Source of the DNA: Gemmatimonadales bacterium
GTDB lineage: Bacteria; Gemmatimonadota; Gemmatimonadetes; Gemmatimonadales; GWC2-71-9
DNA: 45,192 bases
Reading direction: 5' to 3'
NCBI GenBank assembly: GCA_036395195.1
Contig: DASWDP010000009.1
Location: forward strand, 1-45,192
The position numbers were made by a program, and so were the translations under genes. A model generated the notes under the pieces. That model did no database searches, was not told the origin of the DNA, and was given only the letters and a program-made list of their open reading frames with translations. This document shows positions 4,860 to 45,151 of this stretch, piece after piece; positions within the stretch are counted from its first letter, which is position 1; the number at the start of each line of letters is the position of its first letter.

Positions 4860-6050
4860 CTAGCCGTGAACCACGCGTCCGGCGACGACGGTGAGGAGGG
4901 CGGTACAAGGCGGTAGAGGGCGGTAGAGGGCGGTAGAGGGAAACACCGCGAGGTCGGCCTCTTTCCCGACGTCGAGCGAACCGATCTCACTCTCCAGGCC
5001 GAGGGCCCGCGCGCCCTCGAGCGTGAGCATCCGCAGCGCCTCCTCACCTTCGAGCCCGGCCGCGGTCGCTTCGGGCCACAGGCCCACGTCTCCCGTGCTC
5101 ACCACCGAGTCGGTGCCCAAGCCGACGGGCAGTCCGGCCCGCCGGAAGGCGGAGAACGGGGCGGTGCCGTGCCCGTGGGCGCGGTTCGACCGCGGGCAGT
5201 GCGCCACCGCCACCCCCGAGTCCCGCAGAATCACCACGTCTCGCTCGTCCACTTGAACGCAGTGGATGCTCAGACAGTTGCCAGACGCCAAGACGCCAAG
5301 TTGCAAGAGATACTCGACGGGCGAGCAGTGGTGCGGCTCGACCGCGATGCCCCGCGCGCGCAAAGCATCGGCGAACGGGCCCCTGCCCTCCCGCACCAGC
5401 TCAGTCTCCTCGCGCGACTCGGCGAGGTGCATCGCGACCGGCAGCCGCGCGCTCCGCGCGAGCTCGTCCACGGCGCGGTACAACCGGTCGCTCACCGTGT
5501 AGGGCGCGTGCGGCGACACACCGAGCCGCAGCCGCGTCGAGGCGAGGCCGCCGAGCCGCCCGAGCGCCTGCTCCAGCTCGGCGAGGCTGGTCCGCGCCTC
5601 TTCGGGATCGGGGCCGAACACCTCCTGGTACACAATGCCCCGGCCCCCCAACGCGTGCAGCGCTTCCATCACGGCGCCAGTCGAGCCCGTGTCCGCGACG
5701 CAGGTGACCCCCGCGGCCCACGCGTCCCGCACCCCCGTCTCCGCCGCACGGCGGAACTCGTCGGGCGTGGTGGCGTCCTTGAGCGCGCGGATCGTGCGGA
5801 TCCAGCGGGCGAACTCGCGCTCGGCGTTCTTCCCGGCGAGATGCGTGAGCTCGAGATGCGTGTGGGTATTCACCAGGCCGGGGACGAGGACCGCGTCGCG
5901 AAACTCGAGCGCCTGGATCCCCGGGGGAGTGGGGACGTGGGGATGCGGGCCGACGGCCGCGATCTTGCCGCGGTCGTCAACGAGAACGGCGCCGTCCTCG
6001 ATGGGCGGCGCCGTGACGGGGTGCACTGAGCCAGCACGGATGCGCAGCAT
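4860..6050 (-). CDS. Amidohydrolase family protein (chlorohydrolase/deaminase-like)
   Basis: The NTHTHLELTH metal-binding HxH motif is present, and the C-terminus has GSLDVGKEADLAVF. The start is set at the ATG at 6050 (MLRIRAGSV...). The ORF-track extension to 6104 only reads through the heptamer repeat. Confidence 0.8.
   Translation of the reverse strand: MLRIRAGSVHPVTAPPIEDGAVLVDDRGKIAAVGPHPHVPTPPGIQALEFRDAVLVPGLVNTHTHLELTHLAGKNAEREFARWIRTIRALKDATTPDEFRRAAETGVRDAWAAGVTCVADTGSTGAVMEALHALGGRGIVYQEVFGPDPEEARTSLAELEQALGRLGGLASTRLRLGVSPHAPYTVSDRLYRAVDELARSARLPVAMHLAESREETELVREGRGPFADALRARGIAVEPHHCSPVEYLLQLGVLASGNCLSIHCVQVDERDVVILRDSGVAVAHCPRSNRAHGHGTAPFSAFRRAGLPVGLGTDSVVSTGDVGLWPEATAAGLEGEEALRMLTLEGARALGLESEIGSLDVGKEADLAVFPSTALYRPLPPCTALLTVVAGRVVHG
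4891..4940. repeat. Direct tandem 10-mer repeat (CGGTAGAGGG x3, a variant CGGTACAAGG, and a partial GTGAGGAGGG) inside the amidohydrolase 3' end
   Basis: Read directly from the sequence: 4901-4940 is four consecutive 10-mers and 4891-4900 is a degenerate fifth. On the minus strand this encodes PSTALYRPLPPCTALL. Confidence 0.9.
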
Positions 6051-6052
6051 TA

Positions 6053-6136
6053 GGGGTTCGGGGTTCGGGGCTCGGGGCTCGGGGCTCGGGGCTGCCGGTC
6101 GCACTCCCGAGCCCCGAACCCCGAGCCCCGAGTCCC
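6053..6136. repeat. Heptamer-repeat palindrome, GGGGYTC type (six units, 11-nt gap between arrays, 4.4 inverted units)
   Basis: GGGGTTC x2, GGGGCTC x3 and GGGGCTG occupy 6053-6094. GAGCCCC-type units occupy 6106-6136. Manual pairing of 6060-6090 with 6106-6136 gives 31 positions with 1 mismatch and 2 G:T, and a 15-nt loop (6091-6105). Confidence 0.92.
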
Positions 6137-8301
6137 TAGGGTGACACCCCGATGCCGAACGGCGCGTGCACCGGACACGACTGGCTCGGCTCGGTGCCCG
6201 GATAGAACCAGTCCCAGTGCCGCACCTCCTGCGGACAGAACGGCGTCGCGAGGTAACCGTTCGACCAGTCGACCTCTCGGGTGATCAGCGAGTCGGGCCG
6301 AGGCCAGTCGGGCGGCGCGGGACGCCGGTCGTACACGTCGCGCATGAACGCGGTCCAGGCCGGCGCGACGATGCGGCCGCCGCCGGCGTTGTGCTCGAGG
6401 ATACGCTGCTGCAGATCGTATCCCACCCACATCCCGGCCACGAGCTCGGACGTATAGCCGATGAACCAGGCGTCGGTGTAGTCGTCGGTGGTGCCGGTCT
6501 TGCCCGCGGCCGGGAGCGTGAAGCCCGCCTTCCAGACGGCGCTGAAGGCGGTGCCGCGGCGGATCACGTCCTTCATCATATCCACCATGAGCCACTCGTG
6601 CTCGGGATCCATCACCGGCTCGCGCCGGATGGCGGGCTGCCACAGGATGTTCCCCTGCCGGTCCTCCACCCGCAGGAGGCCGATCGGCTCGGCGCGAGTG
6701 CCGAGGGTCGCGAACGCGGTGTACGCGGCGATCATCTCCATCGGGCGCACGCCCTTCGCGCCGATGTGGATCGACGGGTACGGCGGCAGCGGTGTGGTGA
6801 TGCCATAGCGCCGGGCTTCGCCGATCACCGTCTGCTCGCCCAGCGACATGCCGAGCTTGATCGTCGCGAGGTTGCGCGAGAGGTACAGGCCCTCGCGCAT
6901 CGGGATCAGACCGAGGGTCGTGTCGTCGTCGTCCTTCGGCTGCCACAGCGTGGAGTCGAGCTGGATCACCGGCGGGTTCAGGGGCGAGTCGTCGAGGATC
7001 TCGGTCACCGGGTGGCCCGCCCGGATCGCCGCGGAGTACACGAACGGCTTGAAGGTCGAGCCCGGCTGGCGGATCGCCTGCGTGGCGCGGTTGTACTTCG
7101 AGTCGTCGAAGTCGCGCCCGCCGATCATCGCGCGGATGTAGCCGGTGTTCGCCTCGAGGGCCACCAAGGCGCCCTGGAGGTACGGGGTGAACGGCCCGTG
7201 GTCCTCCGCCGACGCCTTGGACGACTCGATGTACTCGCGGTAGGTCGTGCGTCCCGGGAACTTGCCGTTGGAGTACACACCCGCCTCGATGGCGTCGAGC
7301 TGCGACTGCAGCGCGCGCTCCGCCGCCTGCTGCATGTCGAGGTCCAGGGTGGTGTAGATCCGCAGGCCGCCCTCGTACAGGTCGCGCCCGAAGCGCGCGT
7401 CGAGCTGCACGCGCAGCCATTCCACGAAGTAGGGCGCCACGTCGCCGTAGCTCGTGCGGTTGGCGGTGAGCACGAGCGGGTACGCCTTCCACAGCTCGGC
7501 TTCTTCCGGGGTCAGGTAGCCCTGGTCGCGCATCAGCCCCAGCACCACGTTGCGCCGCTGCACGGCGCGCTCGGGGTGAGTGCGCGGGTTGTAGAACGCC
7601 GGCAGCTTGGGCAGCGCCGCGAGCGTCGCCGCCTCGGCGACGTTGAGCTGCCGGGCCGACTTGCCGAAGTAGATCTGCGCCGCCGCGTCCACGCCGTACG
7701 CCCCGGCGCCGAGGTTGATCTGGTTGAGATAGAGCTGGAGGATCGTGTCCTTCGGGAAGTTGCTCTCGATCTCGACCGCCACGCGCGCTTCCTTGAGCTT
7801 GCGCGCCAGCGTCTTCTCGCGCCTGATCTCCTCCGGGAAGATGTTGCGCGCCAGCTGCATCGTGATGGTCGAGAACCCCTGCGCGAAGCTCAACGTCAAC
7901 AGGTTGTTCTTGATCGCGCCGATGATGCGCCAGTAGTCGATCCCGTGGTGCTTGTAGAAGCGCTTGTCCTCGGTGGCGATGAACGCCTGGCGCACCGGCT
8001 CGGGGATCTCGGAGAGCGGCAGCACGGTGCGCCGCTCGGCGCCGAGCTCGCTGATCAGCCGGCCGTCGGCCGCGTACACCTTGGAGGTTTGGACCTGGTG
8101 GTTCGGGTTCGCGACCAGGCGCGAGATGCTGGGGCAGTGTTCGCCCGCGCACACGCGGGTCCACGACCCGTAGGCGAGGCCGAGCAGGTAGGCCCCGAGC
8201 AGCAACGCCGCCGCGATCAGGCGGCCGCGGATTTTCGGATCCCGCCACCAGGAGAGGGGACGCGAGCCGGGGAGGGAGACCGGCGCCGGAATGGACACCA
8301 T
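6136..8301 (-). CDS. mrcA: Penicillin-binding protein 1A (bifunctional glycosyltransferase/transpeptidase)
   Basis: 721 aa with an N-terminal TM anchor. GT51 motifs are EDKRFYKHHGID and RKLKE. Transpeptidase motifs are STFKP (SxxK) and KTGTT. Confidence 0.92.
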   Translation of the reverse strand: MVSIPAPVSLPGSRPLSWWRDPKIRGRLIAAALLLGAYLLGLAYGSWTRVCAGEHCPSISRLVANPNHQVQTSKVYAADGRLISELGAERRTVLPLSEIPEPVRQAFIATEDKRFYKHHGIDYWRIIGAIKNNLLTLSFAQGFSTITMQLARNIFPEEIRREKTLARKLKEARVAVEIESNFPKDTILQLYLNQINLGAGAYGVDAAAQIYFGKSARQLNVAEAATLAALPKLPAFYNPRTHPERAVQRRNVVLGLMRDQGYLTPEEAELWKAYPLVLTANRTSYGDVAPYFVEWLRVQLDARFGRDLYEGGLRIYTTLDLDMQQAAERALQSQLDAIEAGVYSNGKFPGRTTYREYIESSKASAEDHGPFTPYLQGALVALEANTGYIRAMIGGRDFDDSKYNRATQAIRQPGSTFKPFVYSAAIRAGHPVTEILDDSPLNPPVIQLDSTLWQPKDDDDTTLGLIPMREGLYLSRNLATIKLGMSLGEQTVIGEARRYGITTPLPPYPSIHIGAKGVRPMEMIAAYTAFATLGTRAEPIGLLRVEDRQGNILWQPAIRREPVMDPEHEWLMVDMMKDVIRRGTAFSAVWKAGFTLPAAGKTGTTDDYTDAWFIGYTSELVAGMWVGYDLQQRILEHNAGGGRIVAPAWTAFMRDVYDRRPAPPDWPRPDSLITREVDWSNGYLATPFCPQEVRHWDWFYPGTEPSQSCPVHAPFGIGVSP

Positions 8302-9635: not shown

Positions 9636-10289
9636 ATGTTCATCGGCCACTACGCCGTCGCGCTCGCCGCCAAACGCGCCGCCCCCCGGACCTCGCTCGG
9701 CACCCTGTTCGCCGCGGCGTCGCTCGCCGACCTGCTGTGGCCCGCGTTCGTCCTGGCGGGGTGGGAGCAGGTGCGCATCACCGGCGGCGCCAATCCGCTC
9801 CTCGCGCTCACGTTCGACGCGTATCCGATCTCGCACAGCCTGCTCACCCTGCTCGCGTGGGGGGTGCTGTTCGCCCTGCTATACCGCGCGCGCACCGGCT
9901 ACGCCCGCGGCGCGGTCGCCGTCGGCCTCCTCGTGGTCAGCCACTGGGTGCTCGACTTCTTCACGCATCTCCCCGACATGCCGCTGTACCCGGGCGGGCC
10001 GCGGCTGGGCCTCGGGCTCTGGAGTTCGGTGCCGGGAACCGTCCTCGTCGAAGCGCTGATGTACGGCGCCGGCCTCTGGATCTACGCGGCCTCCACCCGT
10101 GCGCGCGACCGGGTGGGCCGCTACGGCTTCTGGGCGCTCGTCGCGGTGATCACCCTGTCGTACGTCGCGTCGCTCTTCAGCCCGCCTCCGCCGACGGTGA
10201 CGGCGTTGGGGATCGGCGGCATCGTGTTCGGCTGGCTGTTCGTGGGGTGGGCGGCGTGGGCGGATAAACACCGAGACGGCGTTACATAA
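9636..10289 (+). CDS. Integral membrane protein, possibly YdjM/DUF457-like metal-dependent hydrolase
   Basis: 217 aa with about six hydrophobic helices. His/Asp residues sit at helix ends (MFIGHY, ISHSLL, SHWVLDFFTH). It starts 2 nt after the tyrS stop. The family assignment is tentative. Confidence 0.65.
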   Translation: MFIGHYAVALAAKRAAPRTSLGTLFAAASLADLLWPAFVLAGWEQVRITGGANPLLALTFDAYPISHSLLTLLAWGVLFALLYRARTGYARGAVAVGLLVVSHWVLDFFTHLPDMPLYPGGPRLGLGLWSSVPGTVLVEALMYGAGLWIYAASTRARDRVGRYGFWALVAVITLSYVASLFSPPPPTVTALGIGGIVFGWLFVGWAAWADKHRDGVT

Positions 10290-10352
10290 ACAACGTTGCA
10301 CGTCAGACGTTGCACGCGAGACGTGGGACGTGCAACGTGTAACGTGTAACGC
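10280..10352. repeat. Heptamer-repeat palindrome, ACGTnnn type, in a convergent intergenic spacer
   Basis: Eight in-phase heptamers run from 10293 to 10348: ACGTTGC ACGTCAG ACGTTGC ACGCGAG ACGTGGG ACGTGCA ACGTGTA ACGTGTA. The stem 10294-10316 / 10329-10351 is 23 bp with 2 mismatches and 1 G:T, and the loop is 12 nt. Confidence 0.88.
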
Positions 10353-10357
10353 CTTCT

Positions 10358-19444: not shown

Positions 19445-20427
19445 TGCCGCTGCACGTGGCGCTCGTCTCGCACCACCGGTTGCCGGTGCAGGGGTACGGC
19501 GGGACGGAGCGCGTGGTCGTGGCGCTCGCGCGGGGGCTTGACGCGCTCGGCCACCGCGTGACGCTGCTCGCCGCGCCCGGCACGCGGGTCGCCGAGGCAG
19601 CGGTCGTCGAGGCGCCGCCGGCCCGCATCCTGGATCCCACCGTCGACCTCGCCACGCTCCTCCCGTCGGACGCGGACGTCGTCCATGCCTTCTTCGCCGT
19701 GCGCCGTACACCCTCCCGCCCGTTCGTCCGGACGCTCGAAGGGAATCTCCGGGCGGGCGTCGCCGCGTCTCCCGACACCATCTTCGTTTCCCGCAACCAT
19801 GCCCACCGCTACGGGAGTGAGGTCTTCGTCTACAACGGCCTCGATCCGGGAGACTATCTGTTTCGATCCGAGAAGGACCAGTACGACCTGTTCCTCGGCC
19901 GGCTGCACAGCGTGAAGGGCTACCGGTGGGCGATCGAAGGCGCGAAGCGGAGCGGCCGGCGGTTGCTGATCGCCGGGGGCTGGCGCCCGAGCTTGCGCCG
20001 CAGGATCCGCTACGTCGGCACGGTCGACGGCCGCAAGAAGGCGGAGCTTCTGGCGGGCGCCCGCTGTCTCTGGATGCCAGCGCTGTGGGACGAGCCGTTC
20101 GGCCTGACGACGATCGAGGCTTTGTTCTCCGGAACGCCCGTCCTGGGCACGCGCCGGGGCGCGCTGCCCGAGGTGATCAGCGCCGAGGTGGGCGCGCTCT
20201 GCGACTCGCTGGACGAGATGGTCGCCGCGGCGGAGACGATCCACACCCGGAGTCCCGAGGCCTGCCGCGCCCACGCCGAGCGCTACTTCACCCACCTCGT
20301 GATGGCGGAGGAGTACGTGCGGATGTACCGGTCCCTGCTCGAGACCGGGCGGCTGCCGCCCGGCCGGCCCACGCCGTTCGCGCCCCCCCCGCCCCCCCCG
20401 CCCCCTCCTAGCGCAGCGCCACGGTGA
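19444..20427 (+). CDS. Glycosyltransferase (GT4-like), tandem paralog B, with a poly-proline tail
   Basis: It starts at MPLHVALVSHHRLPVQGYGG. The start ATG overlaps the stop of paralog A (TGATG). EPFGLTTIEALFSGTPVLGTRRGALPE is present. The C-terminus has nine consecutive prolines encoded by C8-G-C8-G-C5. Confidence 0.85.
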   Translation: MPLHVALVSHHRLPVQGYGGTERVVVALARGLDALGHRVTLLAAPGTRVAEAAVVEAPPARILDPTVDLATLLPSDADVVHAFFAVRRTPSRPFVRTLEGNLRAGVAASPDTIFVSRNHAHRYGSEVFVYNGLDPGDYLFRSEKDQYDLFLGRLHSVKGYRWAIEGAKRSGRRLLIAGGWRPSLRRRIRYVGTVDGRKKAELLAGARCLWMPALWDEPFGLTTIEALFSGTPVLGTRRGALPEVISAEVGALCDSLDEMVAAAETIHTRSPEACRAHAERYFTHLVMAEEYVRMYRSLLETGRLPPGRPTPFAPPPPPPPPPSAAPR

Positions 20428-26671: not shown

Positions 26672-27060
26672 CCCGGGTGGGGGCGGGGGGGGCCACCACG
26701 CCCGCCGAGGAGCGGCTCATCGCGCTCGCCGCCGAGGCAGCCCGGGGGCCCGTACGCGACGGGCTGTTCGCCCTGTGGCTCGTGGTGCGCGTCGCGGAGG
26801 CGCTGCTCCCGCCGCGGCCGGTATCGGGCAAGAATCACCGCCGCCGCCTCCAGGCGCTGGAGGCGCGGCTCGCGAGCCTCGCGCTCCCCGCCCCCCTCAA
26901 GCGCGCCGTCGCCGCGGCGCGGCAGCACCTCGAGGCCGGGACGCCCGCTGCGGCCGCCCTGGTGCTCTCCCAGCTCGTGGCTCCGGCCCGGGACGTGCTC
27001 GGCCCCGAGGCGGGGGACGCCGTGGTCGTTGCCGCCCGCTCCGCCCGCATACATCTATAA
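26668..27060 (+). CDS. Hypothetical protein (Ala/Leu/Arg-rich, helical)
   Basis: 130 aa. The GTG start overlaps the GT9 stop (GTGA). GC3 is high throughout. I recognise no family motif. Confidence 0.5.
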   Translation: MTRVGAGGATTPAEERLIALAAEAARGPVRDGLFALWLVVRVAEALLPPRPVSGKNHRRRLQALEARLASLALPAPLKRAVAAARQHLEAGTPAAAALVLSQLVAPARDVLGPEAGDAVVVAARSARIHL

Positions 27061-31550: not shown

Positions 31551-31630
31551 AATTGCGGATCTCGGATTGCGGATTGCGGATTGAAGGCGCGACCGTCGAA
31601 TCCGCAATCCGAAATCCACAATCCGCAATT
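31551..31630. repeat. Heptamer-repeat palindrome, GATTGCG type, filling the ruvB-queA spacer
   Basis: The left arm is AATTGCG GATCTCG GATTGCG GATTGCG GATTGAA (31551-85). The right arm is AATCCGC AATCCGA AATCCAC AATCCGC AATT (31599-630). Pairing covers 32 positions with 4 mismatches, with a 16-nt loop. Confidence 0.92.
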
Positions 31631-31636
31631 CTCCGC

Positions 31637-32668
31637 GTGCGCTACCGAACCGCAGACTTCGACTACACCCTGCCAGCCGAGCTGATTGCTCAGGAACCGC
31701 TCCCCGACCGCGCGGCGAGCCGCCTGCTCGTCCTCGAGCGGGCGAACGGGCGCGTCCGCCACGCGCGCTTCCCGGACCTCCTCGAGCTGATCGCGCCGCA
31801 AGACGTACTCGTCCTCAACGTGTCGCGGGTAATCCCGGCGCGACTGCACGGGAGACGGGAGACGGGAGCCGCGGCGGAGATCCTGCTCGTCCGCGAGCTG
31901 CCCGACGGGAGCTGGCTCGCGATGGGGCGCCCCGGCGGGAAACTCAAGCCTGGACGGCGCGTGACCTTCGGCGACGACAGCGCGGTGGAGATCGTCGAGA
32001 TGCTGGGCGGCGGGCTGCGACGGGTGCGTTTCGTCGGGCCGCTCGATGCCCGGGCGACGCTCGCCACGTACGGCGCGGTCCCGCTGCCCCCGTATATCCG
32101 CCGCGCCCCCCGACCCGAGGACCGCGAGCGCTACCAGACGGTGTACGCCGCGCACGACGGCAGCGTCGCCGCGCCGACGGCGGGGCTGCATTTCACCCCC
32201 GAGCTGCTCGCCCGGCTCCGCGCGACGGGCGCGGCGACGGCCGAGCTCGATCTCCACGTCGGCCCGGGCACCTTCAAGCCCGTGGAAACGGACGACCTGG
32301 CGCACCACACGATGCACGCCGAAGCGTACGCGGTGGGCGAGGACGCGGCGGCACTCATTAACGCGAGACGGGAAGCGGGAGGCCGCGTCTGGGCGGTGGG
32401 GACCACGGTGGTGCGGACGCTCGAGACGTGCGCCGACGAGCGCGGCCGGATCCGCGCGGGCGCCGGGGAGACGCGGGCGTTCATTTATCCGCCGTACCCG
32501 TTCCGCGCCCTCGACCGCCTGCTCACCAATTTTCACCTGCCGCGCTCGACGCTGCTAATGTTGGTGTGCGCCTTCGGGGGATATGAGCACGTGATGGGGG
32601 CGTATCGGGAGGCGATTGCGGACGGATACCGGTTCTATTCGTATGGCGATGCGATGGCGATCATCTGA
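31637..32668 (+). CDS. queA: S-adenosylmethionine:tRNA ribosyltransferase-isomerase QueA
   Basis: From the GTG at 31637 it reads (M)RYRTADFDYTLPAELIAQEP, which aligns with the QueA N-terminus of E. coli (MRVTDFSFELPESLIA). The ORF-track TTG at 31538 only reads through the upstream repeat. Confidence 0.9.
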   Translation: MRYRTADFDYTLPAELIAQEPLPDRAASRLLVLERANGRVRHARFPDLLELIAPQDVLVLNVSRVIPARLHGRRETGAAAEILLVRELPDGSWLAMGRPGGKLKPGRRVTFGDDSAVEIVEMLGGGLRRVRFVGPLDARATLATYGAVPLPPYIRRAPRPEDRERYQTVYAAHDGSVAAPTAGLHFTPELLARLRATGAATAELDLHVGPGTFKPVETDDLAHHTMHAEAYAVGEDAAALINARREAGGRVWAVGTTVVRTLETCADERGRIRAGAGETRAFIYPPYPFRALDRLLTNFHLPRSTLLMLVCAFGGYEHVMGAYREAIADGYRFYSYGDAMAII

Positions 32669-32745
32669 TTTCGGATTGCGGATTGTGGATTGCGGATTGG
32701 CAGGTCGACCTTCGAATCCGCAATCCGAAATCCGCAATCCGCAAT
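32667..32745. repeat. Heptamer-repeat palindrome, GATTGCG type, filling the queA-tgt spacer
   Basis: The left arm is GATTTCG GATTGCG GATTGTG GATTGCG GATTGGC (32667-701). The right arm is AATCCGC AATCCGA AATCCGC AATCCGC AAT (32715-45). Unit and spacer core (GACC.TCGAATCC) match those of 31551-31630. Confidence 0.92.
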
Positions 32746-32752
32746 AGCGCCC

Positions 32753-33934
32753 GTGTTCGAGTTCACCATCGAAGCGACGTCCGGCGCGGCCCGCACCGGC
32801 ACCCTCACTCTGCCCCACGGCACCGTCGAGACGCCGGTGTTCATGCCGGTGGGCACGCAGGGGACCGTGCGCGCGCTCTCGCCCGGCGACCTGCGCGCGG
32901 CGGGCGCGGAGCTGGTGCTCGCGAACACCTACCACCTGCACGTGCGCCCGGGCGAGCAGGTGGTCGAGAAGCTCGGGCGGCTGCACCGGTTCATGGGCTG
33001 GGACCGCCCCCTGCTCACCGATTCGGGCGGCTTCCAGGTGTTCTCGCTCGCGGGGTTGCGGCGGGTGGACGAGGACGGCGTCGAGTTCCAGAGCCATGTG
33101 GACGGGAGCCGCCGCACGCTCACGCCGGAGCGGGCCACGGAGATCCAGTGGACCCTGGGCGCCGACATCGCGATGGCGTTCGATCACGTGGCGCCGGGGG
33201 GCGCGGATGAAGGCACCGCACGCGACGCCCTGGAGCGGACGCTGCGGTGGCTGGAGCGGTGCGCCAAGAGGCATCGGGGGCTGATGGAAGGTCGGAAGGT
33301 TGGAACGTTGGAAGGCGGTTCCGTCCAACCTTCCAACCTTCCAACCTTCCCCCAGACTCTCTGGCCCATCCTGCAAGGCGGCACCCATCTCCAGCTTCGG
33401 ACCGAGGGTCTCCGCCGCATCCTCGAGCTCGGCTCCTGGACCGGCCTCGCCATCGGCGGGCTCTCCGTCGGCGAGCCCAAGCCGGTGATGTATGAGATGC
33501 TCGAGCGGCTGGAGCCCGGGCTTCCCGCGCCGCTGCCGCGTTATCTTATGGGTGTCGGGTTCCCCGAGGACCTGGTGGCGGCGGTGGAGCGCGGGGTGGA
33601 CCTGTTCGACTGCGTTGCGCCGACGCGCAACGGGCGCAACGGCTCCGCGTTCACGCCCGACGGCCCGGTGAACATCCGCAACGCCGAGCATCGTGAGGAC
33701 GCCCGGCCGCTCGACGAGGCCTGCGACTGCGAGACGTGCACCACGTTCTCGCGCGGCTATCTCCGCCACCTGTTCATGGCAGAGGAGCTGCTGGGACTCC
33801 GGCTCCTGTCGTTGCACAACGTCCGCTACCTGATCCGGCTCGCCGCAGCCATGCGGGCCGCGATCCGGCGGAACGCCTTCGGCGCATGGGCCGAGGAGTG
33901 GCGCCGCCGCTACCTGCAACCGAGATCCGCATGA
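32753..33934 (+). CDS. tgt: tRNA-guanine transglycosylase Tgt (with an in-frame repeat-encoded insertion)
   Basis: From the GTG at 32753 it reads (M)FEFTIEATSGAARTGTL..TPVFMPVGT. It has GGLSVGE, YLMGVG and the zinc motif CDCETC...H. The ORF-track start at 32690 lies in the upstream repeat. Confidence 0.9.
   Translation: MFEFTIEATSGAARTGTLTLPHGTVETPVFMPVGTQGTVRALSPGDLRAAGAELVLANTYHLHVRPGEQVVEKLGRLHRFMGWDRPLLTDSGGFQVFSLAGLRRVDEDGVEFQSHVDGSRRTLTPERATEIQWTLGADIAMAFDHVAPGGADEGTARDALERTLRWLERCAKRHRGLMEGRKVGTLEGGSVQPSNLPTFPQTLWPILQGGTHLQLRTEGLRRILELGSWTGLAIGGLSVGEPKPVMYEMLERLEPGLPAPLPRYLMGVGFPEDLVAAVERGVDLFDCVAPTRNGRNGSAFTPDGPVNIRNAEHREDARPLDEACDCETCTTFSRGYLRHLFMAEELLGLRLLSLHNVRYLIRLAAAMRAAIRRNAFGAWAEEWRRRYLQPRSA
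33286..33350. repeat. Octamer-repeat palindrome (GGAAGGTY / CCAACCTT) lying in frame inside tgt
   Basis: GGAAGGTC GGAAGGTT GGAACGTT GGAAGGCG occupy 33286-317. CCAACCTT x3 plus CC occupy 33325-350. The loop is about 9 nt. It translates as EGRKVGTLEGGSVQPSNLPTFP. Confidence 0.9.
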
Positions 33935-35735: not shown

Positions 35736-36352
35736 GGCTACCGCTGCCGCGCCTGCACGCGATCACCGACGAGCGGATCGCCCGGCGGGCGGACCTGGAC
35801 GACGTCGCCCGCGAGCTCGCGGCGGGCGGCGGAGCCGAGATCGCCGTCCACGCGCGCGGCCGGTCGCTCACCGGTCTGGAGCACTACGAACTCGCTACCC
35901 GTCTATCCGCCTATCCGCCTACCCGTCTATTTGTCAACGACCGCCTGGACGTCGCCCTCGCCGCGGGCGCCGCGGGCGTGCAGCTCACCCACACGAGCCT
36001 CGATCCGGCCGACGCGCGGCGCCTCGACACGAACTGGTGGATCGGCATGTCGGTCCACGGGCTGCGCGAGGCGACGGCCGCACGAGACGCGGGCGCCGAC
36101 TATCTTTTGGTAGGCCCCATGTATCCCACCGCCACACACCCGCAGGGCGAGCCGCTGGGCGTGGCGGGGGGGGGGCTCGCGGCGATCGTCCGCCTGGGGC
36201 TCCCGGTGATCGCCATCGGGGGGGTGACGCCCGAGCGGGTGCCGGAGCTCAGGGCCGCCGGTGCGTACGGCGTGGCCGCCATCCGCGCCCTGTGGGACGC
36301 GGGCGACCCCGGTGCCGCCGCGCGGCGGATGGTGGGGGAGCTGGAGACATGA
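35732..36352 (+). CDS. thiE: Thiamine-phosphate synthase ThiE
   Basis: 206 aa from a GTG at 35732 (GTGA overlap with fmt). Motifs are LHAITD, LFVNDRLDVA, YLLVGPMYPT and IAIGGV. Confidence 0.88.
   Translation: MRLPLPRLHAITDERIARRADLDDVARELAAGGGAEIAVHARGRSLTGLEHYELATRLSAYPPTRLFVNDRLDVALAAGAAGVQLTHTSLDPADARRLDTNWWIGMSVHGLREATAARDAGADYLLVGPMYPTATHPQGEPLGVAGGGLAAIVRLGLPVIAIGGVTPERVPELRAAGAYGVAAIRALWDAGDPGAAARRMVGELET
35896..35935. repeat. Direct tandem 8-mer repeat (TAYCCGYC x4 plus TATTTGTC) inside thiE
   Basis: The units are TACCCGTC TATCCGCC TATCCGCC TACCCGTC TATTTGTC. ACCCGTCTA recurs exactly 24 nt apart, giving TRL...TRL in the protein. Confidence 0.85.
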
Positions 36353-37362: not shown

Positions 37363-37390
37363 GGACGCGACCGCCGCCCGGCGCGCGGCA

Positions 37391-38650
37391 TTGCAGATCC
37401 TCCACGCGGTGCGCGACGGCGCCACGTTCCAGGCGGCGCGCGACCGCGTCCTCGGCGACCTGGCCGAGCGCGACCGCCGGCTCGCCTACGAGCTCGCCGC
37501 CGGCGTGCTGCGCCGGCAGGCGGAGCTCGACCGGGCGCTCGCGCTCCGTACCACCGACCCCCGACTCCACGATGTCCTGCGCCTCGGCGCCTACCAGCTG
37601 CGCGCGCTCACACGCGTTCCGGCGTACGCCGCCGTGTCCACGAGCGTCGCGCTCGCGCGGGAGACAGAGGGAGAGTCCGCGGCGCGGTTCGTCAACCAGG
37701 CGCTGCGGAAGCTGCAGCGGGGCTCGGGGATCGGGGCTCGGGATTCGGGCACTACTCACCCCCGCTGGCTCCTCGAGCGATGGCGTCGCCAGTTCGGGCT
37801 CGAGGGAACCGAAGGGCTCATCGCGTGGAACGACAGGAAATCGCCGCTCACCCTGCAACCCGTTCGCTGGAGCGCAGCCGAGCTCGGGGCCCGGCTCCAA
37901 GAGGCGGGCTTCGGTGTAACAGAAGCGCCGTTTGGGGCGGGGTTGCGTGTGAACCCGAGCCCCGAGTCCCGAGTCCCGAGCCCCTCGCAGCTGCCGGGCT
38001 TCGAGGAGGGCGCCTTCATCGTCCAGGACCCCGCCCACGCACTGGTATGCCGGTACGCCGCGGTGCCGCCGGGAGCCCTCGTGTACGACGCCTGCGCCGC
38101 CCCGGGCGGTAAGGCGGTGATGCTCGAGCGGCTCGGGGCCCGCGTGGTGGCCGGGGACACGCGGCGCGAGCGGCTCGCCCGGCTGGTCGCGACGGCGCGC
38201 CGCGCGGGAGTGGCGATTCGTGTCGCCCTCACCGATCTTCTGTCGGCGCCATTCGCGGCGGGCGCCCTGGACGCCGTCCTCGTCGACGCCCCGTGCTCGG
38301 CGACCGGCACTATGGCGCGGCATCCGGATGCCCGTTGGCGCGTGACGGCGCGAACGATCGCGCGGGCCGCCGAGCGGCAGCGCGCGCTGATCACTGCGGC
38401 CGCGCGGCTCGTCACGCGCGGCGGTCACCTAATCTACGCGACCTGCTCGCTCGAGCCCGAGGAGAACGGCGACATCGTGAACGAGTTCCTGGCGCGCCAT
38501 CCCGAGTTCGCCCGCGACCCCGCCCCTCCCCCCGAGGCCCCCGGCGCGGTGCCCGCGGAGCTGCTGACGGCGGAGGGCGACTTCCAGGCGCTGCCGCAGC
38601 GCCACGGGACGGGCGGCGCCTACGCGGCCCGCCTCGTGCGGAGCCGGTGA
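37391..38650 (+). CDS. rsmB: 16S rRNA (cytosine967-C5)-methyltransferase RsmB/Sun
   Basis: It has a NusB-like N-domain, then FIVQD, DACAAPGGK, DAPCSATG and ATCSLEPEEN. The true start is uncertain: the TTG at 37391 truncates the first conserved helix (see finding). Confidence 0.85.
   Translation: MQILHAVRDGATFQAARDRVLGDLAERDRRLAYELAAGVLRRQAELDRALALRTTDPRLHDVLRLGAYQLRALTRVPAYAAVSTSVALARETEGESAARFVNQALRKLQRGSGIGARDSGTTHPRWLLERWRRQFGLEGTEGLIAWNDRKSPLTLQPVRWSAAELGARLQEAGFGVTEAPFGAGLRVNPSPESRVPSPSQLPGFEEGAFIVQDPAHALVCRYAAVPPGALVYDACAAPGGKAVMLERLGARVVAGDTRRERLARLVATARRAGVAIRVALTDLLSAPFAAGALDAVLVDAPCSATGTMARHPDARWRVTARTIARAAERQRALITAAARLVTRGGHLIYATCSLEPEENGDIVNEFLARHPEFARDPAPPPEAPGAVPAELLTAEGDFQALPQRHGTGGAYAARLVRSR
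37719..37750. repeat. Heptamer repeat arm, GGGGCTC type, in frame inside rsmB
   Basis: The arm reads GGGGCTC GGGGATC GGGGCTC GGGATTC GGGC and encodes RGSGIGARDSG. Confidence 0.85.
37951..37984. repeat. Inverted heptamer repeat arm, GAGYCCC type, in frame inside rsmB, 200 nt from its partner
   Basis: The arm reads GAACCC GAGCCCC GAGTCCC GAGTCCC GAGCCCC and encodes NPSPESRVPSPS. It is the reverse complement of the units at 37719-37750 and 6053-6094. Confidence 0.85.
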
Positions 38651-41555: not shown

Positions 41556-42618
41556 GGTCGTGCTGGGGATCGAGACGTCGTGCGACGAGACGTCCGCCGC
41601 CGTGCTCGTCGGCGAGCGCGCGCGCCCCGAGCTCGCGGGCCTCGTGATCCTGTCGCAGGACGTGCACCGGGTGTTCGGCGGCGTGGTGCCGGAGCTCGCG
41701 AGCCGCGCGCACCTCACCGCGCTGCCCGCGGTGGTGGACCGTGCGCTCGCCGAGGCGGGGCTCTCCTGGAGCGCGGTGGACGCGGTCGCCGTCACCCAGG
41801 GGCCCGGGCTCGTGGGCGCCCTGCTCGTCGGCGTCGTGTACGCGAAGGCGCTCGCCTACGCGGGCGGCCGGGAGCTGATCGGCGTGCACCACATGGAGGG
41901 ACACCTGTTCGCCCCGGCCGTCGAGGATCCCGAGCTCGCGCCCCCGTTCGTCGCGCTGCTCGTGTCGGGCGGGCACACGCTGCTGCTCGACGTCCCCGCC
42001 TGGGGCCGCTACCGGCTCCTGGGTCAGACGCGCGACGACGCCGCCGGCGAAGCGTTCGACAAGGTGGCGACGCTGCTCGGGCTCGGGTATCCCGGCGGGC
42101 CCGCGATCGAGCGCCTTGCCCGGGAGGGCGATCCGGCGCGCTTCAGCTTCCCGCGCCCGATGCGCGACGAGGGATTCGAGTTCTCGTTCTCCGGGCTCAA
42201 GACCGCGGTGCTGCGCGCCGTCCGCGCCAGCGACGATCTCGAGCGCGACCGGCCTCATCTCGCCCGCGCGTTCCAGGATGCCGTCCTCGACGTGCTCGTG
42301 ACCAAGCTGGAGCGCGCCGTGCGCGCCACCGGCTATCGCACCGCCGTGCTCGGCGGCGGCGTGGCGTGCAGCCGCACGCTCGCCGCCCTCGCCGCCGAGC
42401 GGCTGGCGGGGAAGGGGGGGGCGCTGGCGCGCGTCGCCGTCGCGAGCCCGCGGCTCAACGCCGACAACGCCGCGATGATCGCACGCGCCGGCTGGTACCG
42501 CCTCGGCCTCGGCGAACGGAGCGACTGGACGCTCGACGCGCGGGCCGACCTTCCGCTCCCAGGCCTCGAGCCACTGGTCATTCCGCAATCCGCAATCCAC
42601 AATCCGAAATCCCAATGA
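41548..42618 (+). CDS. tsaD: tRNA N6-adenosine threonylcarbamoyltransferase TsaD
   Basis: 356 aa. Motifs are VLGIETSCDETS, VTQGPGLVGALLVG, HHMEGH and GGGVACS. The last ~13 codons are encoded by a heptamer repeat. Confidence 0.92.
   Translation: MAEVVLGIETSCDETSAAVLVGERARPELAGLVILSQDVHRVFGGVVPELASRAHLTALPAVVDRALAEAGLSWSAVDAVAVTQGPGLVGALLVGVVYAKALAYAGGRELIGVHHMEGHLFAPAVEDPELAPPFVALLVSGGHTLLLDVPAWGRYRLLGQTRDDAAGEAFDKVATLLGLGYPGGPAIERLAREGDPARFSFPRPMRDEGFEFSFSGLKTAVLRAVRASDDLERDRPHLARAFQDAVLDVLVTKLERAVRATGYRTAVLGGGVACSRTLAALAAERLAGKGGALARVAVASPRLNADNAAMIARAGWYRLGLGERSDWTLDARADLPLPGLEPLVIPQSAIHNPKSQ
42580..42614. repeat. Half element (one arm only) of the AATCCGC heptamer type at the tsaD/lgt junction
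   Basis: The arm reads ATTCCGC AATCCGC AATCCAC AATCCGA AATCCCA and ends at the lgt ATG (42615). I see no GATTGCG-type partner arm nearby. Confidence 0.85.
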
Positions 42619-45081: not shown

Positions 45082-45151
45082 CGTCATCCGTCGTCCGTCG
45101 TCCGTTATCCGCAACTACGGATGACGGATTACGGATGACGGATTACGGAAA
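45082..45151. repeat. Heptamer-repeat palindrome, CGTCRTC / ACGGATK type, directly after the last gene of the array
   Basis: There are ten in-phase heptamers. The stem 45082-45111 / 45118-45147 covers 30 positions with 2 mismatches and 3 G:T, and the loop is the 6-nt CAACTA. Confidence 0.9.

Follow-up and report, generated by a model that had tools for sequence, protein, structure and literature searches.

Inverted, covarying heptamer arrays bracket a recombining domain cassette inside rsmB of a Gemmatimonadales clade

Why should a gene for a ribosomal RNA (rRNA) methyltransferase carry, in frame and in mid-sequence, two G-rich heptamer arrays that are reverse complements of each other? The question is raised by rsmB in a stretch of 45,192 nt from a Gemmatimonadales bacterium (contig DASWDP010000009.1; G+C 71.5%), the whole of which was analysed and is here called the window. 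We show that the two arrays (arm 1 and arm 2) and the domain-coding segment between them make up one cassette of about 300-370 bp with matched ends, that at least nine allelic types of this cassette exist in one Gemmatimonadales clade, each with its own repeat unit on both arms, and that homologous recombination has repeatedly exchanged one whole cassette for another, with end points in conserved DNA outside the arms. What the arms do for the cassette is a more tentative matter, on which we weigh a DNA-level explanation against its competitors.

The RsmB protein of the window matches the Pfam families PF01029, PF22458 and PF01189, its domains running from NusB (aa 3-110) through an RsmF/B ferredoxin-like domain (aa 123-184; PF22458) to the methyltransferase (aa 230-415), and the nearest of its 7813 homologs are from Gemmatimonadota. 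A reading made from the letters alone, hereafter the sequence-only reading, had pointed out inverted arms in this gene, and a repeat search bore this out by recovering inverted arms of 31 nt that are 84% complementary and spaced 204 nt apart (Table 1). Arm 1 reads GGGGCTC GGGGATC GGGGCTC GGGATTC GGG and arm 2 reads CCC GAGCCCC GAGTCCC GAGTCCC GAGCCCC, and Tandem Repeats Finder called both as period-7 arrays. The same reading was correct that both arms are translated within rsmB (...LQRGSGIGARDSGTTHPRW... and ...RVNPSPESRVPSPSQLPGFEEG...): they lie in frame in the middle of the gene (aa 110-120 and 188-198 of the 419), occupying both inter-domain linkers and enclosing precisely the ferredoxin-like domain. 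In the AlphaFold model, the arm 1 region (aa 111-124) is coil with a predicted local distance difference test score (pLDDT) below 50, and the arm 2 linker (aa 189-197) is coil with a pLDDT of about 70-79; as modelled, the arm-encoded peptides are shown to be passengers that form predicted disordered linkers between domains. The further claim that the arms had been inserted at linkers holds for their position and fails for simple insertion, since outgroup RsmB proteins have linkers at the same places, of other lengths and sequences. No direct-repeat duplication was found outside the arms in the window sequence.

To place the arms in their evolutionary setting, 160 loci were fetched by a retrieval that favoured intact genes; about 90 of them come from one Gemmatimonadales clade (62-100% protein identity) and reduce to 75 distinct arm sequences. 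Alignment of these orthologs reveals the arms as a clade-wide pair, with heptamer arrays in both linkers, at the same two positions, in about 72 of the 75; the other three (L006, L008 and L112) have lost them. The 15 outgroup rsmB genes show no period-7 runs, other linkers and a background helix score of 8.1, and the peptides encoded by the arms are absent from distant orthologs. At least nine unit types occur in the clade, namely GGGGCTC, GGGGAGC/GGGAGCA, GGGATGC, GGGAAAC, GGGAAGG, GGGAGGC/GAC/GCC, GGTGTCA, GGGTACC and GGCTATT, and GGGTGTC is a further unit spelling among the orthologs. Through these changes the unit is identical on both arms of a gene in 70 of 72 cases, a coupling that can be seen in the peptides, where GSGLGARD goes with PSPEPRVPSP, AGCGMRD with THPASRIPPP and SGSGERG with APRSPLP. 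The G-rich arm comes first on the sense strand in every rsmB pair, and even the order of variant units can be exactly mirrored between the arms (27/27 in L103, 26/26 in L107 and 24/24 in L142). In a GGGATGC subclade (L093, L100, L104, L127 and L139), arm 1 has received a 27-nt insertion (DALKDSLTV) after its first unit, the match to arm 2 being preserved over the remainder of the arm.

The coupling of the units extends to base pairing. Scored for complementarity, arm 1 reaches a mean of 20.2 with arm 2 of its own gene over the 75 orthologs (18.5 in the window), against 10.7 with arm 2 of other orthologs and a mean of 9.2 (maximum 14) with other 75-nt windows of its own gene. RNAalifold, given an unfitted MAFFT alignment of 62 sequences, chose the helix between the arms, in which 11 of 14 arm pairs show compensatory changes. 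Over a 21-pair helix, 88% of cells are paired, as opposed to 73.9% in shuffles (0/500 reach 88%) and 38-56% in controls in which the helix was slid, and 16 of the 21 pairs show changes on both sides; these covariation counts are per sequence and not per independent event, many compensatory changes being co-inherited as cassette types. Co-inheritance leaves unexplained, though, that the arms are complementary in each of at least nine types, which needs either selection for pairing or copying between the arms. The minimum free energy (MFE) fold of the RNA of 37700-38000 pairs arm 1 with arm 2 at -172.9 kcal/mol (z = -3.97 against dinucleotide shuffles) and shows no preference for local pairing, the outcome on which the sequence-only reading of a paired element depended. 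In many orthologs, flank pairs of the form GCGC/GCGC or CTG/CAG add to the stem, which may be partly a coincidence of Leu and Gln codons. We infer that the maintained feature is neither the peptide nor the unit sequence but the pairing of one arm with the other in single-stranded nucleic acid.

An account of the matching by which both arms are copies of one unit dominant throughout the genome was rejected, as the flanks of L007, L133 and L136 and the window itself carry different units. In L133, L136 and L007, GGGAAAC arrays lie a few kb from rsmB arms of the GGGGAGC type, and the arms have not been converted. Apart from the rsmB pair, no other long-range inverted heptamer pair was found in about 578 kb of clade loci.

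The arms mark the limits of a separate linkage block. Pairwise distances of the N-terminal part of rsmB and of its two C-terminal parts correlate at r 0.85-0.88 (0.84-0.90 for windows of the same length), and these backbone distances correlate at r 0.95-0.96 with those of 800-900 nt upstream (thiG in the window) and downstream of the gene, whereas for the 190 nt between the arms (the arms themselves left out) the correlation with backbone parts and flanks is r 0.41-0.49, and r 0.46 with the rest of the gene. A tree of the inter-arm segment groups almost perfectly by unit type, and a tree of the backbone, that is, the rest of the protein, is not grouped in this way; because the cassette is co-inherited, the same type is found on many backbones. 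In 45-nt windows, the excess identity of genes with the same unit is 0.09-0.11 between the arms and 0.02-0.04 outside them, with sharp edges at the arms. Synonymous divergence (pS) between types is 0.61 in the cassette against 0.44-0.48 in the backbone. The ratio of nonsynonymous to synonymous divergence (pN/pS) rises modestly, to 0.44 from 0.30, and positive selection on the ferredoxin-like domain was set aside as unconvincing on these values.

Direct evidence for block replacement comes from near-identical loci. In nine pairs of sequences with 97-99% identical backbones, a block around the arms is 59-67% identical; its left edge falls at 37661-37723 and its right edge at 38014-38032, just outside the arms, where it abuts conserved motif-coding DNA (...NQALR and FIVQDP...). 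End points in conserved flanks are what would be expected of homologous recombination. Six pairs of loci (L117/L122, L099/L126, L082/L096, L101/L113, L097/L141 and L130/L133) could be followed over 2.5-7.2 kb, across which they are 94-98% identical overall, cassette included; outside the block, aligned sequence of such loci is about 98-99% identical. The median 100-nt window in these pairs is 0.98-1.00 identical, and identity drops below 85% solely in the two to four 100-nt windows over the cassette (59-82%). Conversely, cassettes of the same type form islands of 83-95% identity in backbones that have diverged by 23-25%, for example between L082 and L088. Replacement of cassettes thus accounts for both patterns, near-identical strains that carry different cassettes and divergent genomes that share similar ones.

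Hybrid cassettes are found as well. In L130, compared with L133, arm 1 and the segment belong to one type and arm 2 to another; L149, compared with L002, is similar, and the protein P0098 likewise has mixed arm types. In L130 and L149, one recombination end point lies between the enclosed segment and arm 2, and the two could be either real recombinants or assembly chimeras. As to the pattern as a whole, in four soil metagenome runs, examined as assembled contigs of DNA (Logan), the cassette and its flanks stand at equal depth (for example 15.8 and 15.4), and combinations of backbone and cassette recur in independent assemblies (L090/91/92/94 and L113/114/116/118); on these two grounds we judge the pattern not to be an assembly artefact. 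At 37492-37603, two 5' variants of rsmB (depth about 10 and about 5.6) join a single cassette-bearing contig of depth about 15.8, which indicates that two co-occurring strains share the same cassette in these samples.

Table 1. Features of the rsmB cassette and palindromes elsewhere, in window coordinates.
Feature	Position	Strand	Basis or remark
rsmB coding sequence, 16S rRNA m5C967 methyltransferase family	37391-38650	+	list of open reading frames (ORFs), Pfam, homologs
Arm 1, G-rich heptamer array, GGGGCTC type, 4.4 units	37719-37749	+	encodes linker GSGIGARDSG, aa 111-120
Inter-arm segment, 204 nt, RsmF/B ferredoxin-like domain, cassette body	37750-37953	+	PF22458, discordant distances
Arm 2, C-rich GAGCCCC-type array, 4.4 units, reverse complement of arm 1	37954-37984	+	encodes linker PSPESRVPSP
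Outer stem extension, 5' side, AGCTGC	37710-37715	+	MFE structure, pairs with 37987-37992
Outer stem extension, 3' side, GCAGCT	37987-37992	+	MFE structure
Largest replaced block between near-identical backbones	37661-38032	+	nine pairwise comparisons, sliding windows
Short-loop palindrome, GGGGCTC/GGGGTTC unit	6053-6136		adjoins stop codon (6136-6138, minus strand) of class A penicillin-binding protein (PBP) gene
Palindrome, GGATTGC	31551-31630		after ruvB (31548)
Palindrome, GGATTGC	32668-32745		after queA (32668)
Palindrome of 8-nt units, TGGAAGGT/TCCAACCT	33281-33355		
Palindrome, GGATGAC	45082-45149		after amidohydrolase gene (45081)

Does the pairing act in DNA or in RNA? A helix under selection in RNA should tolerate G·U and not A·C. 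With the register set by Watson-Crick matches alone, the mismatches of the helix comprise 42 of G·U type on the sense RNA, 57 of A·C type, which are G·U when read on the antisense strand, and 79 of other kinds, and the absence of bias leans towards DNA. Moreover, RNA duplexes of different-type arms, at -56.5 kcal/mol against -74.5 kcal/mol for matched arms, are still very stable, so that near-perfect matching is hardly accounted for by selection for a stable stem. A further consideration on the side of DNA is that the cassette is the one patch replaced in backgrounds that are otherwise clonal. The arms are also rich in G tracts: the canonical G-quadruplex motif (G3+N1-7)x4 occurs in 34 of the 75 arm 1 sequences and in 38 of the 75 of arm 2, compared with 10 occurrences over 84 kb of remaining gene sequence, and 67 of 75 arm 1 regions have three to five G3+ tracts. 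The G-quadruplex was not retained as the conserved feature, since only about half of the arms have the strict motif and complementarity is more constant. A Chi-like recombination signal and a DNA-uptake sequence were likewise dropped, in both cases because the unit varies between cassettes.

Our best explanation, offered tentatively and on sequence comparisons, is that of a matched-end cassette that is replaced by recombination and whose arms pair at the DNA level. The inverted G-rich arrays would fold back as a hairpin or a G-quadruplex-prone structure, possibly on the lagging-strand template or in heteroduplex DNA. Such a structure could make the site prone to breakage or to bypass, and repair from a homologous donor would then replace the segment from arm to arm, while templated correction between the arms, together with slippage within each array, would keep the arrays complementary as the unit drifts. 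Both kinds of process have precedents in E. coli constructs, in which template switching perfects quasi-palindromes and SbcCD cleaves hairpins at inverted repeats.

Several points weigh against this explanation. Pairing of the arms in cells, be it as DNA or as RNA, is something that we infer from sequences, all of which are metagenome contigs or contigs of metagenome-assembled genomes. The preference for DNA is a leaning, derived from the absent wobble bias, in which sequences and not events were counted, and from the exactness of the matching. The GGCTATT type, and in part the GGTGTCA type, fail the strict four-tract definition of a G-quadruplex and are without G3 tracts. If the hairpins provoke breaks, alleles without arms should slowly win, yet only 3 of 75 are armless, which suggests that the arms are kept. 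Finally, there is no known driver for swapping a domain of a housekeeping rRNA methyltransferase, and the rise in pN/pS is modest.

The strongest competitor, which we consider possible although rather unlikely, is a long-range duplex in the mRNA, with a stem of 30-40 bp that closes a 204-nt loop and serves as an RNase III site or in the control of translation or stability. Under this explanation the cassette would behave as a block through the loss of the stem, and the counterselection, of recombinants that split arm 1 from arm 2. The MFE fold does pair the arms, their covariation is strong, with compensatory changes of the kind that characterize structured cis-regulatory RNA, and hybrids with mismatched arms are rare; in addition, the same class of array occurs right after stop codons, where the natural interpretation is an RNA hairpin that terminates transcription or protects the 3' end. 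A duplex of about 30 bp had been one of the two options of the sequence-only reading, and the part of it that stands is the pairing constraint, upheld by the fold, RNAalifold and covariation. Less well supported is the RNA nature of the duplex: the signature specific to RNA, tolerance of G·U and not of A·C, is absent, there being no excess of the former over the latter, and Rfam returned no family match anywhere in the window. Furthermore, given the stability of cross-type duplexes, the mRNA stem hardly explains near-perfect matching or so strict a block; translating ribosomes would open a stem that lies within coding sequence; and the sole replaced patch in near-identical backgrounds of 2.5-7 kb is left without an explanation.

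It is also conceivable, though we think it unlikely, that the arms are passive passengers, neutral microsatellites in floppy linkers whose match was inherited from an originally palindromic pair and whose arrays are homogenised by slippage, the block itself being too divergent in sequence for recombination to break. The predicted disorder of the linkers would suit this account, as would the three orthologs that live without arrays and the raised pS of the cassette, which is what old non-recombining alleles are expected to show. G-rich heptamers are, besides, common in the genome and in the metagenome: in the four soil runs the depth over the rsmB arms is 90-490 where the remainder of the gene has about 15, which means that GGGGCTC arrays are common in that community. 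Independent slippage, however, would not keep the arms complementary through at least nine changes of unit, nor mirror the order of their variant units; the GGGAAAC-versus-GGGGAGC neighbourhoods described above, with GGGAAAC arrays beside rsmB arms that stay unconverted (L133, L136 and L007), argue against passive homogenisation; and the account gives no reason for a replacement hotspot.

About equally improbable, in our estimate, is a bolder version of the DNA-level explanation, a 'foldback cassette' that behaves as an enzyme-free mobile unit. A heterologous cassette would be extruded as a stem-loop in heteroduplex or single-stranded DNA, letting strand exchange pass. If this were true, the cassette could be converted or transferred intact between strains and even genera, and better-matched arms would spread better, which would maintain complementarity whatever the unit.

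Switching within the genome, in the manner of pilE/pilS or vlsE, with silent copies converted into rsmB and the G-rich arms initiating the exchange, is in our view very unlikely. Discrete types do recur on near-identical backbones as the sole variable patch, and the cassette borders are G-quadruplex-prone. Against this, a tblastn search of the 45-kb window turned up the segment just once, and in the four runs there was no extra depth at 90% likeness or more, the segment having the same depth as its flanks; where genomes have diverged, cassettes of one type resemble each other more closely than the backbones around them do, a pattern that points to transfer between genomes; and the target is a cytoplasmic housekeeping enzyme.

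We give little credence to an invertible segment, in which 266 bp would flip and so switch rsmB off or recode it. Inverted repeats of 31 bp do flank a short segment, but the roughly 90 clade loci all have one intact orientation (in a search that favoured intact genes), no strand-changing joints were seen in the contigs of the four runs, and the inverted form would have in-frame stops in 54 of 70 orthologs; the segment is 262-283 nt long and not a multiple of three in the window, L001, L096 and L109, and the unit varies freely, unlike a recombinase site. The other option of the sequence-only reading, two half-elements inserted independently, has in its favour the existence of single unpaired arrays (for example at 42582-42616 and 31848-31868 of the window, in L133 and in L007) and deserves next to no credence, as the arms form a pair conserved in position whose units change together and which is inherited clade-wide along with the enclosed segment, so that the ortholog comparison already contradicts it.

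Some further candidates were set aside. For frameshift phase variation, the four runs show no indels and all retrieved orthologs are in frame, in a retrieval that favoured intact genes. A miniature inverted-repeat transposable element (MITE) or a transposon with terminal inverted repeats does not fit a single-copy segment that encodes a domain homologous to that of all RsmB proteins and has no target-site duplication. Repetitive extragenic palindromic (REP) sequences and bacterial interspersed mosaic elements (BIME), imperfect palindromes outside genes that keep a single conserved sequence in each genome and go with a RAYT transposase, do not fit intragenic arms, nor several unrelated units in one 45-kb window. 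Joints in the metagenome that skip 204-218 nt, taken at first sight as deletions of the segment, are instead other GGGGCTC short-loop palindromes of the metagenome, with loop letters of their own.

The rsmB arms are not alone in this genome. They have the unit of the short-loop palindrome at 6053-6136 in common, as the sequence-only reading had stated, and in kind they match the G-rich heptamer hairpins that follow stop codons here: four palindromes of the window, those of the PBP, ruvB, queA and amidohydrolase genes, begin at most a few bases from a stop codon. The known G-rich heptamer-repeat class includes the intergenic palindromes; the intragenic cassette looks new.

Within a genome, the palindromes after ruvB and queA share their unit, so that queA is bracketed by palindromes of the same unit. 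This unit is GGATTGC in the window and in L004 (234-312), and GGAATGC in the syntenic palindromes of both L002 (126-224 and 1280-1358) and L001 (266-360). The four arms at two neighbouring sites therefore change unit together between genomes, which hints that concerted change of nearby arrays is general. The last codons of tsaD (42582-42616), up to the stop at 42616-42618, contain a lone C-rich array of TCCGCAA x5, complementary to the GGATTGC unit, and no complementary partner lies within 1.2 kb of it. The palindrome at 45082-45149 has its C-rich array first (CGTCATC... then ACGGATG...), whereas all others, every rsmB pair included, are G-rich first.

Arrays of other unit lengths are present as well. 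Beside the palindrome of 8-nt units listed in Table 1, there is an 8-nt array at 35895-35930 (CTATCCGC x4.5) and a 10-nt array at 4896-4940 (GAGGGCGGTA x4.5), near the 3' end of a minus-strand ORF, and these show that the phenomenon is not limited to heptamers. Long runs of C and G stand at 20381-20405 and 26674-26693 (CGCCCCCCC x2.8; CGGGGGGGGG), and an imperfect palindrome with 37-nt arms at 10274-10357 is built of ACGT-containing units of 7 and 14 nt (ACGTTGC, ACGTGTA) without G/C skew. A GGGCGCC 'array' upstream of rsmB (37368-37389) turned out to be ordinary GC-rich sequence and not a repeat.

A literature search recovered the heptamer class; neither an rsmB cassette nor a domain-bracketing pair that is intragenic and covaries came up in it. 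G-rich heptamers have been known as intergenic oddities; here, a housekeeping gene of essential type harbours a conserved pair that covaries like the strands of a helix through at least nine unit changes and delimits the sole piece of DNA that differs between otherwise near-identical strains. The locus thereby offers a natural and testable system of inverted microsatellites kept complementary by selection or by templated correction, in which it can be asked whether structure-prone repeats set the borders of gene conversion in free-living bacteria, and it also bears on why many old alleles exist of a single RsmB domain. A practical warning follows for this group, in which rsmB phylogenies or strain typing would be misled by the cassette.

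Among known systems, quasi-palindrome correction and SbcCD cleavage are the closest to the processes that we invoke, as they perfect inverted repeats and make them sites of breakage or recombination; they were worked out on short-spacer laboratory constructs, in contrast to the conserved natural pair, 204 nt apart and intragenic, of rsmB. Antigenic variation in pathogens offers a second parallel. Pilin variation in Neisseria (pilE/pilS) needs a G-quadruplex structure. In Borrelia, vlsE has 17-bp repeats, and a role for G-quadruplex DNA at vls has been suggested (PMC3585125). As in rsmB, a discrete and divergent central segment with a G-rich, structure-prone border is replaced as a block in these systems. 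They differ in drawing on silent donors of the same genome, in acting on surface antigens of pathogens and in having direct-repeat or one-sided borders, whereas rsmB encodes a cytoplasmic rRNA methyltransferase of a soil bacterium and its borders are type-specific inverted repeats.

In hsdS of type I restriction systems, domain blocks swap between conserved repeats that are common to all alleles. Here too a repeat-flanked domain block is exchanged by recombination, the genes are mosaic and the history of the block differs from that of its frame. Unlike the hsdS repeats, those of rsmB differ between alleles and lie inside the exchanged block, with the crossovers in conserved coding DNA outside.

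The arrays themselves have their nearest relatives among G-rich bacterial heptamers, to which the STRR heptamers of cyanobacteria are a related repeat class. The GGGNATC-type repeats of Xanthomonas and Nostoc (Rehm et al. 2015) usually have about four units with a G-tract, lie mostly 0-50 bp after stop codons and show under-representation within coding sequence (PMC4692102). There are 70-75 convergent two-array cases per genome, for which a stem-loop or a G-quadruplex is possible, and the class forms G-quadruplexes in vitro (PMC4692102). The intergenic palindromes of the window fit this stop-codon-proximal description, and the rsmB arms resemble the class in being tandem G-tract heptamers of 4.4 units. 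The two arms converge, each strand having its G-rich array first, with 204 nt between them. In contrast to the one dominant unit per genome in those species, several units coexist here, both within a genome and among orthologs. The rsmB pair further stands apart in lying mid-gene and in frame around a conserved coding spacer of 204 nt rather than a short loop, and in its clade-wide conservation, its covariation and its place at the borders of a recombining cassette, an arrangement that PMC4692102 does not report for the repeats it describes.

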